This document shows positions 37,972-63,961 of a DNA stretch of 64,000 bases, one piece after another. This stretch comes from an uncultured delta proteobacterium (GTDB lineage: Bacteria > Desulfobacterota > Binatia > UBA9968), in NCBI GenBank assembly GCA_963840855.1, contig CAWJBB010000074.1, positions 9,214 through 73,213 on the forward strand, written 5' to 3'. The position numbers and the translations under genes are program-made. The notes under the pieces are model-generated. The model did not search any database. It was not told where the DNA came from and was given only the letters and a program-made list of their open reading frames with translations. How positions within the stretch are numbered: the first letter of the stretch is position 1; the number at the start of each line of letters is the position of its first letter.

Positions 37972-38853
37972 TCAAATTCCTATATTGTCTTCGGGTTTAC
38001 GCTTATGCTTGTCCTTCACCCGCGGAATACCGCTCCAGTCACCCTTCATCCAATACTCCGTCAGGCTACCAAACGCACCGAGGAGCATGCCCAGGGCGAG
38101 GATAAAATACCAGAGAGCGTCGCCGAAAGGGCTGATCATGCCCATGAGCGTGGCCACCAGTTGCGCCGTGCCGGTACCGAAGACGATTCCTAGGAACAGA
38201 CGAGTTTCGCGCTGAAACCCGGTGTGAGTCGAATAGATTCCCAAGAACATACTCACGAAAAAGGCCAAAAACGGCGCCAGCACGAGGGCGAAAATCGCGC
38301 CGGCGCCACCACCGCGGGTTGATGCGTTTTCGAGAGCTTCTTCATCGGTGATGGCCGCGGAGCGAAACTCGCCCGAGATGACGCCAAAGATGAAATGCAC
38401 GCCGCCATAAATACCCAAGTCGGGACGGAGGCCGTTGATATAGAGGTCGAGAGAGGATTGCAGTTTTTGCGTGGCCTCTGTTTTCGGGAAGCGCGGTTCA
38501 AGTTCCGCGCCGACGTGAATGCCGACGAGATGTTCTTTGCGCGCGACCACCACAAGCACGGCCCTATTTAGCTCTTTTTCATCAAGCGGCAGGCCCCGAA
38601 ACGCCTTGCCCGCGAGCGCTTCGATGTTTTCATTTTCTTCCAGACTCGGCACCGTCAGCACGGCGACCGTGTGGCTGCTCTGGATTTTGAAGCGTTTCAG
38701 ACGCTGCGTAAGATCGTCGTAACTCGCAGGCGGGATCATGCCGGCGAAGTCGTTTACGGTTGCCTGGAGCGGCGGCAATTCGCGGCATAGAGCCGGACCG
38801 CCGCCGTACAGGAGGCTGGTGAGAATAACGGCGCGCAATAGGGCTGCGAACAT
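37972..38853 (-). CDS. TPM domain (DUF477) membrane protein
   Basis: VNDFAGMI, VAVLTVPSL, VLVVVARKE..IHVG, C-terminal TM helices. Confidence 0.8.
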   Translation of the reverse strand: MFAALLRAVILTSLLYGGGPALCRELPPLQATVNDFAGMIPPASYDDLTQRLKRFKIQSSHTVAVLTVPSLEENENIEALAGKAFRGLPLDEKELNRAVLVVVARKEHLVGIHVGAELEPRFPKTEATQKLQSSLDLYINGLRPDLGIYGGVHFIFGVISGEFRSAAITDEEALENASTRGGGAGAIFALVLAPFLAFFVSMFLGIYSTHTGFQRETRLFLGIVFGTGTAQLVATLMGMISPFGDALWYFILALGMLLGAFGSLTEYWMKGDWSGIPRVKDKHKRKPEDNIGI

Positions 38854-38863
38854 CGAAATACTC

Positions 38864-39649
38864 TTAGGCCTTAAATGTCTTTGCCGCCGCGAGCCGTATA
38901 TTTTGGTCCAGCGCCGCCATCCGCGCTTCGGACAGGGGAAAACCGAACTGTTCGTTACGCATGCGCAAGCGCTGGCTGGAGACTTCGGTGATAATGCGCG
39001 CCGCGCGCAGGTACGTGGCCCGGGTTTTGATCAACGCATCCAAAGAACGGCCGCCGGCGTTCTTGTGTTCCGTTTCATCCAACAGGATTTGCTTGAACGC
39101 GCGGGCGATTTTTCTCTCGAAGCCGTTTCTCTTGAGCTTGCTGCAAACCAGGTACAGCGCGCCGCCGCCCCCCTCGGTGATCGTGATGGCGGCCCGCTCC
39201 AGCGCTTCGTCCTGGCGGCGGATTTCCTTTGTCTTGATCAATCCCGTGCCGTGCAGCAGCGTCGCGTAACTCGGCGAATAGCGCGCGCGGATCCGGGCGA
39301 GTTTTTTGTCCTCGGGCAGCCACAGCAAGTCGGCAAAGGTGGTTTTTTTGCGTCTGATCTCTTCCAGGAGATCCATGATCAGCCGCGCATGCTTGGTTTC
39401 GTCGGCGAGTTTTTCCGTCAGCGCCGCGAAATCATGGCGGTGGATACCGCGGTCCACCTCAGGGTAGAGTTTGGCAAGCGCGGTGAAGATGGGCTTGATG
39501 GCGGAGTATTCTTTATACGCCTGAGCGCTTAGCCACCTGAGGTGGTCTTTTTTTCTGCGCGGTTTTCTAAAAAAGGCCGCAATGATCGCCACTTCGGCGG
39601 CGCGATAAGCCGCGGCAAGTTTGCGCAATCGTTGGACGTAACGATTCAC
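38864..39649 (-). CDS. Ferritin-like (diiron-carboxylate) protein
   Basis: E..(KEYSA), DETKH, EGGGG, DETEH ligand pattern; GTG start after AAGGAAG. Confidence 0.7.
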   Translation of the reverse strand: MNRYVQRLRKLAAAYRAAEVAIIAAFFRKPRRKKDHLRWLSAQAYKEYSAIKPIFTALAKLYPEVDRGIHRHDFAALTEKLADETKHARLIMDLLEEIRRKKTTFADLLWLPEDKKLARIRARYSPSYATLLHGTGLIKTKEIRRQDEALERAAITITEGGGGALYLVCSKLKRNGFERKIARAFKQILLDETEHKNAGGRSLDALIKTRATYLRAARIITEVSSQRLRMRNEQFGFPLSEARMAALDQNIRLAAAKTFKA

Positions 39650-39669
39650 GTCTCTTCCTTTGGTCGAGA

Positions 39670-39798
39670 GTTCAAGGTTCAAAGTGACGCGCCTTTGGCG
39701 CGCGGTTCAAAGCCTACCCTGAGCTTGCCGAACGGGTTCAATGTTTAAGGTTCAAGGTGGGGAGGGGACGTTGAACATTGAACCTTGAACTTTGAACG
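39670..39798. repeat. Composite GTTCAAG/TTGAAC array carrying three shared modules
   Basis: Contains the 37271 module, the 35013 module and the reverse complement of the 35013 core. Confidence 0.85.
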
Positions 39799-39856
39799 GA
39801 CATGGATCTCAATTGTCCAGCCATTCTCAATTTGTTCACGTTGGTGGAGCCCCGGG

Positions 39857-40372
39857 TCATTTCGGCGGCAGCGGTACGACCCATCCGCATTTGCGGCAGG
39901 TTCTCAGGGACTCGTCGTGGTAAAACGTCTGATGCACCTGGGAGACTGGATCCTGGCGGTAATCGCCGACTTCGGCTGTGACCTCGTAGATCTTTTCGCC
40001 GCACTGGTCACAAAACCAGATGAACCGATCTATTTCTCCGGGTCTACGCTTGCGCTCGAAGACAATGAACCAGGAGTTTTCTTCGACCCTCGGCGAATGC
40101 GGCACGCCGCCGGGACAGAGCAGCATCTGGCCCGCTTTGATAACAGCCGTGTGCTCGCGGCCATCCGGCGCGCGATGAACCAAATTCTGCATCCCGCTCA
40201 ATTGCAGCGTGACCTCGTCGGCCGGGTCGATGTGAAAGTCCCTGCGCTCTTTGCGCCCGCTACTCAAGAACGCGATGGACTCGGAGTCCTGCCAGAGCAC
40301 ACGGCGACCCTTACCTTCCGCTTTGACGTTCTCGACAATCTCTTTGAGGTCGATGGGGATGAGTTCCTTCAT
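39857..40372 (-). CDS. nbaC: 3-hydroxyanthranilate 3,4-dioxygenase-like cupin
   Basis: RRDFHIDPADE, VPHSPR, and rubredoxin-like CDQC / CRKC. Confidence 0.8.
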   Translation of the reverse strand: MKELIPIDLKEIVENVKAEGKGRRVLWQDSESIAFLSSGRKERRDFHIDPADEVTLQLSGMQNLVHRAPDGREHTAVIKAGQMLLCPGGVPHSPRVEENSWFIVFERKRRPGEIDRFIWFCDQCGEKIYEVTAEVGDYRQDPVSQVHQTFYHDESLRTCRKCGWVVPLPPK

Positions 40373-40418
40373 GGGCTGAATATAGCGCTTTCGAAACCGT
40401 TTGGGCAATAGAGTTGAA

Positions 40419-40470
40419 TAACAAGCTGTTGAAGAACTCCTCCGGAGTCCCTTCGAGGGGCTCAGGATAA
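40419..40470. mobile_element. MITE left-end remnant
   Basis: TAACAAGCTGTTGAAGAA..CGGAGTCCCTTCGAGGGGCTCAGG resembles 10445-10500. Confidence 0.5.
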
Positions 40471-40556
40471 AATTCGCGACCGGGTAGCGTGTAGTCTTGA
40501 CGGTGGAAGCAACGGGGTGATAGGTTTTTTTCGAGAATAATTCTCGGAGGTGTTTC

Positions 40557-58410: not shown

Positions 58411-59248
58411 CTAGAAAAACGCCAAGGTGCGCATCTCGATGCTTTCGCGCGGCGGAGCGCCCGGCGGGCTGGTGGGATCGTCGAAAGCGCAGTGCGCGGT
58501 CCAGCGCGCGCGACCGTCTTTTTCCGAATCGAAGGTTTTGAACACCATCGCTTCGTGGCGCTGCATGTTGGGAAAGTAGTACCAGACATGATCGGGGTTG
58601 AAGGTCATGTGATAGGTTTCGCCGACCCGATTCGGGTAAATCCGCGCGCTGGGAACCAGTTCCGCCGTGCCGATGCTGCGCGCGTCGGCGATCGCCAGCG
58701 GCTCTCGTTGTACCGGATGTCGAATCGGCCGCCAGGTCTGGACGACGGCAAAGCGGCCCTTGAGCAGTTCTTCCGCTTCGTCGGGAAGCAGATCGCGCAC
58801 GCGCTGCGGCCCCGACCACTCGGTGTAGTCGTTATGGGCGTTGCGCACCGGGCCGCTGATCTGTTTTTCGTCCCGAGTCGCCTGGTCGGCGGAGCGCAAC
58901 GTATGGTCGAAGACGACCACGCGCTTGGCACCGGCAGAGCGTTTCACCAGCTCTTCGGTCTCTTTATAGTAAACCGAGCGGACCTCGGTCTTCGTCGTAG
59001 AAGTTTTTCATCTTGGTCTCATGATTGACGAAGATGAATCCTTCGCGCTCCAGGGAGAATTGATCGGCGATGGCGCGGCCGTTATGGATCGTCATTTTGT
59101 GTTCTTGGTAATTGCCCTTGCGTTTCTGGTCCGCCGCCGACTGTCTCAGGCCTCCGTAGGTGGCAGGTTTTTCGCCGCTATCGACGAGGTAGTTGAGCAG
59201 CGCTTCGATGGATTCTAACGGTTGTCCAATTCTTTCCGGTCGTGCCAT
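58411..59248 (-). CDS. CmcJ/NvfI (AsaB-like) oxidoreductase family (apparent frameshift near 58985)
   Basis: FSLEREGF; VVFDHTLR, AHNDYT, WRPI..PLAIADARS, HCAF, RESIEMR. Confidence 0.85.
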
Positions 59249-61303: not shown

Positions 61304-62579
61304 ATGCAATTGAACCTCGCCATCCATCCCATCACTGAAATTCGCTTCGCCGAGCACGCGCCGGCTCGCCGGCGCTGTGCTCACCGTGAACCGGGAAGAA
61401 TTACTCCGGTTGGTGCTCGAGGATGCATCCTTCGAGAACGTCGATTTCGCCATCGCCCGCCCCGGCGAAAGTCTGCGCGCCGGGCCGGTCTTTGATATCG
61501 TGGAGCCGCGCGCAAAGGCGCCGGGATCGAGTCCTGATTGGCCCGGTATCTTGAACGCGCCGCAGACCGCCGGCGCCGGCACGACGCATGTTCTCGAAGG
61601 CGCGGCGGTAACGATGCTGCGGGAAGAGTCGCCCGGCGAATCGCGCGGCGCCACTGGTTATGTATTGGAAATGAGCGGGGAGCCGGCGACCCGCTCGCCC
61701 TATAGCTCCTTGCATCATTTGATTGTCATTCCCCGCGCGAAGGCCGGACTGCCCGGTCACGCCCGGCAAAAAGCCTATCGTTTGGCGCAACTAAAGATTG
61801 CCGTGCATTTGGCGCGGGCCGGCTTGAATCAAGCGCCGGCGCAAACGCAAGAACTCGCGATCTCAGCATCCGAAGACGGCGCCGTGCTGCCGCGAGTCGC
61901 CTATATCGGCCAGGTTTTTTCGCGCCAGCGCAAGCCGGAGCAGGGCGAACAGATTCTCTACGGGGCCAACACCGACGGCATGCTGCCGGTGGCGCTCCAT
62001 CCCAACGAATGGCTGGACGGCGCGCTGGTGACTTCCTATCACTGTTCCATCGGCGGCGCGGAAACGTATTTTTACCAGAACCATCCTGTCATAACTGAAC
62101 TTTACCGGCGCCACCAGGCGCGCGAATTGAACTTCGCCGGCACCGTGGCGACCATCGCATCGGCTGATAACTTCGATCGCGAGCGCAACTGCCGCTTTGC
62201 CGCGAATTTGGTCAAGTGGGCACTCAACGCCGACGCCGCGGTACTGACCAAGTTCGGCGGCGGCGTGCCGCACACCGATCTTTCTGAAACGGCCCGGCTG
62301 TTGGAGCGGATGGGAATCAAAACCGTCGTGCAAGTCACCGACCTCGCCCGCGACCGGCGCGTGGAATCGGCGTTGCTCTTCAATTTTCCCGAGGTCGACG
62401 CCATTGTCTGCATCGGCGGCAATGGCACGAAATGGCAGCTGCCGCGCGTCGAGCGAGTGATCGCGGCCAACGGCGGCATGGCGGAATTGCTCGCCGGTCC
62501 GTTTGAAATCGATGCGCTCAATGTCTCCGGTGTGGCCAATCAGCAAGGCGCCTCGAAACTAAGATCGATGATTTACTGA
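61304..62579 (+). CDS. Glycine/sarcosine/betaine reductase component B proprotein, GrdE-like (apparent frameshift near 61360)
   Basis: MQLNLAIHPITEIRF then IARPGES..FDIVEPRAK, G.THVLEG, LHPNEWLDGA, YQNHPVI, GGGVPHTD. Confidence 0.8.
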
Positions 62580-62588
62580 AATAGCCGA

Positions 62589-62662
62589 GAGGCGGAAGGC
62601 GCGAGGCGAGAGCCGGAAATTTTTCCGCATCTCTCGCGCCTGTTGCCTCAAGCCTCACGCCC
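62589..62662. repeat. 7-mer (AGGCGNG) array with inverted (GCCTCA) array
   Basis: gaggcggaaggcgcgaggcgagag ... ctctcgcgcctgttgcctcaagcctcacgcc. Confidence 0.65.
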
Positions 62663-62674
62663 AAGGAGTTTAAG

Positions 62675-63961
62675 ATGAGAATCGTTCATTACTTGAATCA
62701 ATTTTTCGGCGGGCTGGGCGGAGAAGAACGGGCGGGCGTGGGATTGGAAGCCCGCGACGGTGCCGTCGGACCCGGCAAACTCTTGGAGCAGCTTCTTGGC
62801 GGCGAAGCGAAGGTCGTGCTGACTCTCGTCTGCGGCGATAACTATGCCGTTGAAAATCAGCAGGCGATGCTCGCCGCTGCCGTCGAGAGAATCCGGGATG
62901 CCAAGCCGGATCTGTTTGTCGCCGGTCCCTGTTTCCAAGCGGGCCGCTACGGCATGGCCGCCGGCGCGCTCTCTGTCGCCGTGCAATCCCAACTGAATAT
63001 TCCCGTTGTCACCGGCATGGCCGAAGAAAATCCCGGCGCGGATCTCTATCGCGAGTTTTTGTATATCGTCGATTCCGGCGACAACGCCGCCAAGATGCGC
63101 GACATTCTGGCGACGATGGCGCGGCTGGCGGTGAAGTTGGTGAACCAGGACTCCATCGGATTGCCCCGCGAAGAGGGCTATCTACCGCGCGGGCTGATCC
63201 GCGACCGGTTCGTTGAGCGGACCGCCAGCGAACGGCTTGTAGACATGCTTTTAGCGAAGGTAAAAGGCGAGCCCTTCGAGTCCGAAATGGTACCGACGAC
63301 CTTCGCGCCTATACCGATGCCGCCTTCGATCAAAGATCTCAGCAGGGCCAAGGTGATGCTGATCACCGACGGCGGGCTGGTGCCGAAGGGCAATCCCGAC
63401 AAGATCCAAGGCTCGGCGGCCACCCGTTGGGGCTCCTACAGCATCGGTGGTTGCGACGATCTCAAGGGAGAAAATTACGAGATCTCGCATGGCGGTTATG
63501 ACGCGCAGTTCGTGCGCCAGGACCCCGACCGCCTTGTGCCTCTCGATGTCATGCGCGAGTTGGAGAGAGAAGGGGTCATCGGCAAACTCCACGATTCGTT
63601 CATCTCGACTTCGGGATTGGCCAACCCGCTTTCCAACACGCGGCGCATGGGACGAGAAATGGCCGAGCGGGCGAAAGCGCTCGGCATCGACGCAATTATT
63701 TTAACTTCCACTTGAGGCACCAGCACTCGCAGCGGCGCTGCGATTACCACCGAGTTGGAAAAAGCCGGCATCCCGACGGTACAGATCACCGCGGCGCTGC
63801 CGGTGGCGAAAATGGTCGGCGCAAACCGCACCGTGCTCGGCAACGGCATCGTCCACGTCGTCGGCGACGCCAGCATTTCGCCGGAGCAGGAAAAACAACT
63901 GCGGCGCAGGTTGATCGAGAAGGCTTTAGAGCAATTGCGCTCCGACGACAAGCAGGCGTAG
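62675..63961 (+). CDS. grdB: Glycine/betaine/sarcosine reductase selenoprotein B-like (428 aa, Sec at TGA 63713-63715)
   Basis: HYLNQFFGG, CGDNY, AGPCFQAGRYG, GGLVPKGNPD, HGGYD, LTST-TGA-GTSTRSG..EKAGIP; the frame continues through the TGA to TAG at 63961. Confidence 0.9.
63716..63743 (+). promoter_or_regulatory. Bacterial SECIS-like hairpin
   Basis: 11 nt after the UGA: stem TCGCAGC / loop GGC / GCTGCGA (63727-63743). Confidence 0.7.

Follow-up and report, generated by a model that had tools for sequence, protein, structure and literature searches.

Among the described relatives of glycine reductase protein B, a family of selenocysteine (Sec, U) proteins, betaine reductase works with GrdC and GrdD. 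Its GrdI subunit is not known to be cleaved or to carry a pyruvoyl group, as the substrate brings along a leaving group. In D-proline reductase, the Sec of PrdB is thought to attack the substrate carbon directly; PrdB is devoid of the N-terminal domain and is not known to need GrdA or GrdC. The GNC/SAC segment of GrdE, the partner of GrdB, is presumably the site of pyruvoyl self-cleavage at which the GNC cysteine gives rise to the pyruvoyl group, and Bednarski et al. are said to have reported this fate of the GrdE cysteine in 2001. The present analysis deals with a GrdB-like gene and its GrdE-like neighbour in a 64,000-nt stretch of DNA from an uncultured delta proteobacterium of the Binatia (assembly GCA_963840855.1, contig CAWJBB010000074.1, positions 9,214 to 73,213); the whole stretch is referred to as the window. 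The gene encodes UxxSxxS at the place of the UxxCxxC motif and belongs to a widespread branch, undescribed in the searched literature, which is without several hallmarks of the textbook enzyme.

In the available text of PMC6778437, the UxxCxxC motif is called required, a GrdB without it is treated as a likely pseudogene, and UxxCxxC is given for GrdH with reference to Wagner et al. (1999). The accessible part of PMC13188914 lists UxxC and states that GrdA "likely interacts" with UxxCxxC. According to the available portion of the Haft preprint (10.1101/2022.07.06.499078), GrdB functions only in anaerobic environments. The available sections of the selenoproteome surveys of 2005-2007 (PMC1088965, PMC1794560, PMC1976440) carry no mention of a Ser variant. 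Full-text searches turned up no paper dealing with UxxSxxS, with Grd systems devoid of GrdD or with Grd genes of SAR202 or Binatia; the supplements of PMC9751293 (Fig. S6, Table S5) and PMC6778437 (Table S6, Fig. S4) may show members of the clade. Among characterised glycine reductases, no description of UxxSxxS was found in the main texts searched.

The relatives of the window gene were collected by a one-genome-per-species scan, which resulted in 580 relatives and from which the best 80 loci were retained. Together with the five genes of the window's own genome, 79 of these loci gave 84 full-length rows; L044 was left out due to its interrupted N-terminal part. The sequence-only reading had joined two open reading frames (ORFs) over a single TGA in LTST-U-GTSTRSGA, and the coordinates agree with this. 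The ORFs of 62675-63715 (346 aa) and 63755-63961 (68 aa) are in the same frame, and reading of the TGA as U yields a single 428-codon frame at 62675..63961 (+) with the stop TAG at 63959-63961. The TGA at 63713-63715 (+) corresponds to U347, the sole recoded codon, in the context AIILTST-U-GTSTRSGAAITTELEKAGIP. A Shine-Dalgarno-like AAGGAG was recognized by sequence inspection at 62663..62668 (+), 6 nt upstream of the ATG.

The TGA was present in 80 of 80 related loci, and the downstream frame was kept, being open for 66-90 codons past the TGA in all 84 rows. At the DNA level, every row runs on in frame, and the concern that homologues might end at this TGA did not hold. The five genes of this genome are 38-72% identical (some pairs 38-45%) and still share the residues E362, P367, A378, V381, R385, G397, P403, R410, A417, L418 and L421 after the UGA. 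In total, seven genes of the genome contain an in-frame TGA: the five GrdB-like genes, GrdA and SelD. Two independent public DNA contigs, X1 (record 7) and X2 (record 30), span the UGA and both Ser codons, with no differences listed over 63575-63820. Near-identical contigs of the RNA library X15 covered 63603-63739 and 63719-63959 with one differing letter each; these contigs do not cover the whole stretch, and none of them spans the UGA with 31 letters on either side. The RNA-library contigs indicate the presence of the sequence and are at most a weak hint of transcription since DNA may occur in RNA libraries. The two ORFs are thus confirmed as one real gene of the protein B family, for which Sec insertion is predicted.

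Downstream of the UGA, a hairpin of the selenocysteine insertion sequence (SECIS) type was located at 63727..63743 (+), based on folding and covariation. It consists of a 5' arm at 63727-63733 (U CGC AGC), a GGC loop at 63734-63736 and a 3' arm at 63737-63743 (GCU GCG A). The 6-7 bp stem starts 11 nt past the UGA, as had been proposed, and all 7 bp are present in the centroid fold. The folding energy of the 63-nt stretch past the UGA was no better than that of shuffled sequences (z = -0.11); energy alone is uninformative, therefore, the stem was judged by comparison across homologues. In 83 aligned homologous regions, the stem (columns 15-21 with 25-31) was paired in 92.4% of the cells, compared with 17-67% once the 3' partner was shifted by 1 to 3 columns. 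The pair 18/28 was UA in 46 rows and CG in 34 rows, and the pair 19/27 was UA in 50 rows and AU in 28 rows. A nearby downstream hairpin, a G in the apical loop and covariation, all known from bacterial SECIS elements, were found here, and the element is predicted from sequence.

The pair 19/27 links the stem with the motif. The residues S350-T-R-S353 are encoded by AGC ACT CGC AGC at 63722..63733 (+), standing where the UxxCxxC type has C-T-R-C; the codon of Ser350 is AGC at 63722-63724 and that of Ser353 is AGC at 63731-63733. The first base of codon 353 (AGC for Ser, UGC for Cys) pairs with the third base of the Ala355 codon (GCU or GCA), and AGC co-occurs with GCU and UGC with GCA. In the locus L063, both positions are reversed (UGC and GCA). 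The earlier argument that the second AGC pairs inside the SECIS stem was right because the pair covaries, the Ala355 change being compensatory and synonymous, and because L063 reverts both bases. Within the clade described below, the 17 nt CGCAGCGGNGCTGCGAT are near-invariant, synonymous sites included, while the third positions of the flanking codons vary freely.

The membership of the window protein in the GrdB family was determined with profile models. The Pfam GRDB model PF07355 matched residues 1-346 (4.2e-133; 444.4 bits with a cut-off of 22), and TIGR01918 matched residues 2-424 with 480.5 bits (cut-off 65.45). These full-length matches, the UGA at T-S-T-U-G and an adjacent gene of the GrdE/PrdA family place the protein in the family, and together with the TGA and the extension kept among the homologues they uphold the idea of a hidden GrdB-family selenoprotein. 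In contrast, the scores for the individual enzymes remained below the cut-offs: 438.6 bits versus 602.2 for the GrdB equivalog TIGR01917, 479.8 versus 800 for GrdF (NF040794), 433 versus 775 for GrdH (NF040795) and 91 versus 300 for PrdB (TIGR04483). Features of GrdB proper which were not found are the equivalog score, UxxCxxC, a GrdE partner with the GNC cysteine and the complete set of GrdA, GrdC and GrdD. The available part of PMC9751293 (Nobu et al.) gives motifs for GrdB and GrdF, the latter being IHGGYDR ... TTGTGT; by inspection, the window protein does not conform to these, having GPCFQAGRYG, SHGGYDA and STSGLANPLS.

The motifs of the 84 rows were tabulated, resulting in 44 UxxCxxC, 28 UxxSxxS, 9 UxxSxxC and one each of UxxSxxG, UxxCxxS and UxxGxxS. 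The sequence TST-U-GTCTRCG, which had been ascribed to clostridial GrdB, GrdF and GrdH, was found in the 44 clostridial-type rows and is also in print in the available text of PMC6778437. A quick maximum likelihood tree (LG+G4) was built, with support values of the Shimodaira-Hasegawa-like approximate likelihood ratio test (SH-aLRT) only. The 28 UxxSxxS rows and one UxxSxxC row (L063) formed a clade with a support of 100. The 44 UxxCxxC rows fell on one side of a branch with a support of 98; they belong to Bacillota and Synergistota, except for one row that has no phylum label. The clade members come from metagenome-assembled genomes labelled as Candidatus Binatia, Thermodesulfobacteriota, "delta proteobacterium" and Chloroflexota (Dehalococcoidia, SAR202). 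The tabulation of UxxC and UxxS across homologues that had been suggested thus confines the Ser/Ser state to a well-supported clade, separate from UxxCxxC.

The exact 32-nt Ser-coding pattern of the SECIS region was detected in at least 120 metagenome contigs, which with the 28 rows of the genome set marks the Ser/Ser state as genuine. According to the sequences compared, UxxSxxS is the mark of a distinct, strongly supported clade and not a sequencing error. In 23 of 31 related genomes (the unpublished genome G025 included), the family is present in 1 to 8 copies per genome, almost all of which have one TGA. In a protein collection, 4119 relatives were obtained at E <= 1e-20. The best 120 of them are 344-368 aa long, i.e. 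called as ending at the TGA, and bear the names "glycine reductase", "betaine reductase" and "selenoprotein B family"; they are short because gene callers stop at TGA.

The cysteine columns were compared between the 44 UxxCxxC rows and the 29 clade rows, in the numbering of the window protein. Position 53 is Cys and position 347 is U in both types. Position 96 is Cys in 40/44 UxxCxxC rows and Ala in 28/29 clade rows; positions 350, 353 and 372 are Cys in 44/44 UxxCxxC rows each, and Ser in 29/29, Ser in 28/29 and Thr in 29/29 clade rows, respectively. Position 86 changes in the opposite direction, from Ala (43/44) in the UxxCxxC type to Cys (29/29) in the clade; in the window gene, it is the TGT codon at 62930..62932 (+), in AGP-C-F. 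Intermediate rows keep subsets of the four cysteines 96, 350, 353 and 372. In 79 metagenome rows picked by the Ser-coding pattern, Cys86 was present in all 55 rows covering the position, position 96 was never Cys and Thr372 was found in 78/78. Cys350 and Cys353 are lost along with Cys96 and Cys372, which, judged from the alignment, resembles the disappearance of a four-cysteine site rather than of two resolving thiols. The claim that the Sec has no resolving cysteines was not borne out, the clade having gained the invariant Cys86.

An AlphaFold2 model calculated from 23 of the 84 rows had a mean predicted local distance difference test score (pLDDT) of 90.3 and a predicted template modelling score (pTM) of 0.56, with two alpha/beta domains. 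In the model, U347 is at the N-terminus of helix 348-363, directly after strand 340-344; the strand that follows, 368-372, terminates in residue 372. The loop behind strand 80-83 contains Cys86, and position 96 is in the next helix. Since Cys86 and U347 are both in the first loop after a central beta-strand of their domain, Cys86 appears in the model to be the best candidate for a thiol pairing with U347. A sequence search of solved structures gave no match, and a profile of the five paralogues reached only chance level (E 0.15 or worse). Foldseek returned only generic two-domain alpha/beta proteins (TM ~0.2). With VIA-align, residues 1-174 only were matched to flavodoxin-, CheY- and binding-protein-like folds (Z ~10-11), a common arrangement which gives no functional lead.

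The GrdE-like partner is encoded at 61377..62579 (+), 400 aa from the first start codon, and was recognized by PF09338 (Gly_reductase, 7.3e-73). The scores of the partner with GrdG (NF040793; 188.1 bits, cut-off 780) and FarE (NF053623; 143 bits, cut-off 675) were both insufficient. In an alignment of the window partner with 78 partners, those of the UxxCxxC type read DGAI-SGN-C-VSA-C-DKN, with Cys in 37/39 and 38/39 at the two columns. In 27 clade partners, the commonest residues at the same columns were H/Y/W and gap/M/I. At the nearest aligned place, 11 clade partner rows have C, T, N, S, S, T, A, V, N, W and W; in these 11 rows, neither Cys nor Ser nor Thr is conserved at the GNC place. 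None of the five partners encoded in this genome has the GNC cysteine. The 95-nt intergenic spacer between the partner and the GrdB-like gene holds a long imperfect hairpin at 62589..62649 (+), determined with RNAfold and locus comparison. A 110-nt segment of the spacer folds at about -41 kcal/mol; the hairpin is common to the paralogue on contig C30, with compensatory changes, and L042 is similar, while most other orthologous loci are without it.

The other components of the system were searched for in the assembly, which has 7.1 Mb in 93 contigs and is 94% complete and 8% contaminated; the window is at the end of contig C74. A canonical GrdA with CFVU and one TGA was found elsewhere in the genome, directly after GrdC (NF040746; 562 bits, cut-off 450) on contig C7. 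The flanks of the GrdC-GrdA locus (57822-59678 of C7, L032) comprise genes of the Macro, NUDIX and HAD types as well as an NMT1-like binding protein; nearby is a pyridine nucleotide-disulphide oxidoreductase of 485 aa, which includes a dimerisation domain, and a small TrxB-type gene is not adjacent. In this 94%-complete genome, the search for GrdD (NF040747) was negative, the best match having 27.9 bits versus the cut-off of 350. GrdD was not found in five of five complete chromosomes with UxxSxxS genes either, each of which has one GrdC and one adjoining GrdA with TGA. In contrast, the same search was positive in five of five Bacillota genomes of the UxxCxxC type (582-621 bits). The suggested search of the genome for grdA, grdC and grdD gave the first two and failed for the third. 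The proposed different partner stands as far as the differing GrdE-like subunit and the missing GrdD are concerned, whereas GrdA and GrdC are canonical. A search of this genome for heme-copper oxidase subunit I (PF00115) was negative, therefore, the organism is not to be called aerobic.

The genome contains five GRDB genes, each behind a GrdE-like gene recognized by PF09338 and each with one in-frame TGA. Besides the window, the pairs are on contigs C30, C46, C49 and C61 (L033-L036), with UxxSxxS, UxxCxxS, UxxSxxC and UxxGxxS, respectively. The window gene and the C30 paralogue are inside the clade; the other three are outside, two of them on long branches. The only constant neighbour of the GrdB-like gene is the GrdE-like gene. 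The varying neighbours are Amidohydro_2, solute-binding proteins, MFS, a creatinase/prolidase-like protein, PrpD and phosphoenolpyruvate (PEP) mutase. The C61 pair has an MFS transporter on one side and a creatinase/prolidase-like M24 protein on the other, and the C49 pair adjoins an Amidohydro_2 gene, as does the pair of the window.

In 29 sequences, made up of the window, its C30 paralogue and 27 related loci, two other genes recur beside the pair. One is GrdC, in 10 of them, and the other, also in 10, encodes a protein of ~500-600 aa whose N-terminal thioredoxin-like domain is of the DUF255/Thioredox_DsbH type. The latter loci are L043, L046-L051, L053, L055 and L056. The DUF255 thioredoxin-like protein could be the reductant-side partner of the lineage; the only DUF255 relative in this genome is 29% identical and on another contig. 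Farther upstream in the window, at 58411-59248 (-), an oxidoreductase of the CmcJ/NvfI family is seemingly split into ORFs of 94 and 178 aa. The 178-aa part matches positions 87-263 of the 263-position model, and the counterpart in L039 is a single 299-aa ORF.

These results are best accounted for by a Sec-containing protein B module of a distinct clade, which would be free of pyruvoyl, share GrdA and GrdC with its paralogues, work without GrdD and act on a different substrate; the probability of this whole explanation is estimated at about 0.6. The comparison supports that the window protein is not the B subunit of a Stickland glycine reductase because it scores below the GrdB, GrdF and GrdH cut-offs, its partner is without the GNC cysteine segment and its genome is without GrdD. 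The clade probably acts on a substrate other than that of the textbook enzyme. Each GrdE/GrdB-like pair would be a substrate-specific 'protein B' module feeding the single shared GrdA/GrdC. As the partner is without the presumed pyruvoyl cysteine, an amine could not be bound as a Schiff base and the module would work like betaine reductase, on a substrate X-CH2-COO- from which the group X leaves directly, as betaine does with GrdH/GrdI. The alpha-carbon would be attacked by a selenolate (U347 and/or the Sec of GrdA), followed by transfer of the carboxymethyl group first to GrdA and from there to GrdC. Since GrdD is missing, the acetyl unit would probably not be freed as acetyl phosphate. The earlier idea of a different chemistry is probable in view of the loss of the GrdE cysteine segment, GrdD and four cysteines, although its rationale, the lack of resolving cysteines, was not borne out.

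A more far-reaching version of this proposal is tentative, being possible but rather doubtful in its full extent. It holds that pyruvoyl-free modules (five here) with one GrdA/GrdC cleave carbon-heteroatom bonds of carboxymethyl compounds, that U347 pairs with Cys86 and not with CxxC, and that acetyl is freed without GrdD, acetyl phosphate and substrate-level phosphorylation. Such modules would occur widely among bacteria of soil, sediment and the sea, beyond the classical Stickland fermenters.

Several points weigh against the pyruvoyl-free module with a different substrate. What the clade uses as substrate, what it forms from it and what U347 does are deduced from the comparison. As a clue to the substrate, the neighbourhood was tried and rejected, the neighbours of the paralogues differing without pointing to a single compound. 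The absence of GrdD was established with one hidden Markov model, which a non-homologous replacement would escape. In the clade partners, Ser is frequent two residues upstream of the GNC place, and the window's own partner carries a Cys beside it, so an alternative self-processing site may exist; the roles of the GNC cysteine as pyruvoyl precursor and of GrdI as an uncleaved subunit are presumed. The proximity of Cys86 and U347 was argued from topology, the pTM of 0.56 leaving the mutual orientation of the domains uncertain. The covariation cells of the SECIS stem are sequences and not events, and their signal largely tracks the single split between the two types.

The Sec machinery also has gaps. 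The sequence-only reading had proposed a search for selA, selB, selC and selD: selA (616 bits) and selD (383 bits, with its own in-frame TGA) were found side by side with selB on contig C1. The selB gene is, in turn, in two abutting pieces in different frames, i.e. frameshifted in the assembly, which could be an assembly error or a real lesion. The pieces are at about 38613-40500 (-) of C1, between selA and the Sec-containing selD, and the frame changes close to where the GTPase domain ends. The selC product, tRNA-Sec, was not found by ARAGORN in the whole assembly (39 tRNAs, none Sec). Neither a tRNA-Sec near the sel genes nor a tRNA of any kind in the window was found. The best match of RF01852, 43 bits versus the cut-off of 47, was rejected as tRNA-Ser. 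In five of five single-chromosome relatives with the same gene type, tRNA-Sec was present (65-77 bits); the absence here is therefore read as incompleteness of the assembly, though it is still a gap.

The main rival explanation leaves the Sec chemistry unchanged. According to it, Cys96, Cys350, Cys353 and Cys372 of the UxxCxxC type form a structural metal site or two disulfides, which the clade has swapped for hydrogen-bonding residues; the serines would then carry no information on resolving thiols, and Cys86 would be incidental. The joint loss, with A/S/S/T in 28-29 of 29 clade rows versus Cys in 40-44 of 44, would suit such a site, as would the subsets of the four retained in intermediate rows and a residue 372 which, at its strand end in the model, may lie near 350 and 353; some protein families likewise replace zinc sites. 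Yet the invariant gain of Cys86 (29/29 and 55/55) is hardly incidental, and the change coincides with the loss of the GrdE cysteine segment and the absence of GrdD, the whole system being different. Moreover, the available parts of PMC10298544 and PMC13188914 report no metal in protein B. This structural explanation seems unlikely on balance, but the evidence cannot yet separate it from the pyruvoyl-free module.

It is very improbable that the window protein serves as the B subunit of a common glycine (or sarcosine) reductase of the Stickland type, its serines being functionally neutral. Its end-to-end alignment with the GrdB and GrdF models (438-480 bits), the canonical GrdA and GrdC and the names 'glycine reductase' or 'betaine reductase' of near relatives in the source databases speak for it. 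Nevertheless, all three equivalog cut-offs were missed, the GrdB/GrdF motifs in the available text of PMC9751293 are absent by inspection, and the partner has no GNC cysteine. GrdD is missing in the own genome and in 5/5 complete relatives, versus its presence in 5/5 UxxCxxC Bacillota. Hardly credible is a true stop at the TGA, with the 346-aa product functional or a pseudogene decaying and the 68-aa ORF incidental. The lengths of the best 120 of 4119 relatives (344-368 aa), the missing tRNA-Sec and the frameshifted selB of this assembly might suggest it, but truncation at TGA is the usual behaviour of gene callers. The open 66-90 codons in 84/84 rows, with invariant residues even between paralogues of 38-45% identity, the covarying hairpin kept at synonymous sites, the seven genes of the genome with in-frame TGAs and the independent DNA contigs spanning the codon without any difference listed there all contradict a stop.

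For the roles of the Sec and of the CxxC cysteines in GrdB, the clade is a ready-made natural comparison: it keeps the Sec, replaces four cysteines, gains one, has a partner without the self-cleavage cysteine and is without GrdD. The present annotation is wrong twice, as the best 120 of the 4119 relatives are cut at the TGA and named glycine or betaine reductase. When the metabolism of these abundant bacteria of soil, sediment and ocean is reconstructed, an unsupported Stickland-type reduction of glycine or betaine with a gain of ATP may consequently be assigned.

In comparison with the known systems, the window gene is similar to glycine reductase protein B (GrdB/GrdE, TIGR01917) in family, length, the Sec position in TST-U-G and the homologous SECIS, and also in the adjacent GrdE-family gene and the presence of GrdA (CxxU, Sec) and GrdC in the genome. 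It differs from it by UxxSxxS, the lost Cys96 and Cys372, the gained Cys86 and the score of 438.6 versus 602.2, as well as by the partner without the GNC cysteine, the GrdD not found and the five paralogous modules of the genome. With D-proline reductase PrdB (TIGR04483), homology is confined to residues 204-421, the C-terminal half with the Sec, and the score is only 91 bits versus 300. The models of sarcosine reductase GrdF/GrdG (NF040794, NF040793) are the best-scoring named ones (479.8 and 188.1 bits), but these values are far under the cut-offs of 800 and 780, and the GrdF motif in the available text of PMC9751293 is absent. The fluoroacetate reductase of the FarE type in Synergistota (NF053623) is, according to the accessible part of PMC10838667, a Grd-like system with a substrate whose leaving group needs no Schiff base. 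The window's partner is a weak match to it (143 bits), far under the cut-off of 675, and the Synergistota rows of the tree carry UxxCxxC. Betaine reductase GrdH/GrdI (NF040795) differs from the window protein by score (433 versus 775 bits) and by GrdD, which was not found in the window's genome; it belongs to the same family and is the closest model for the way in which the module may work.

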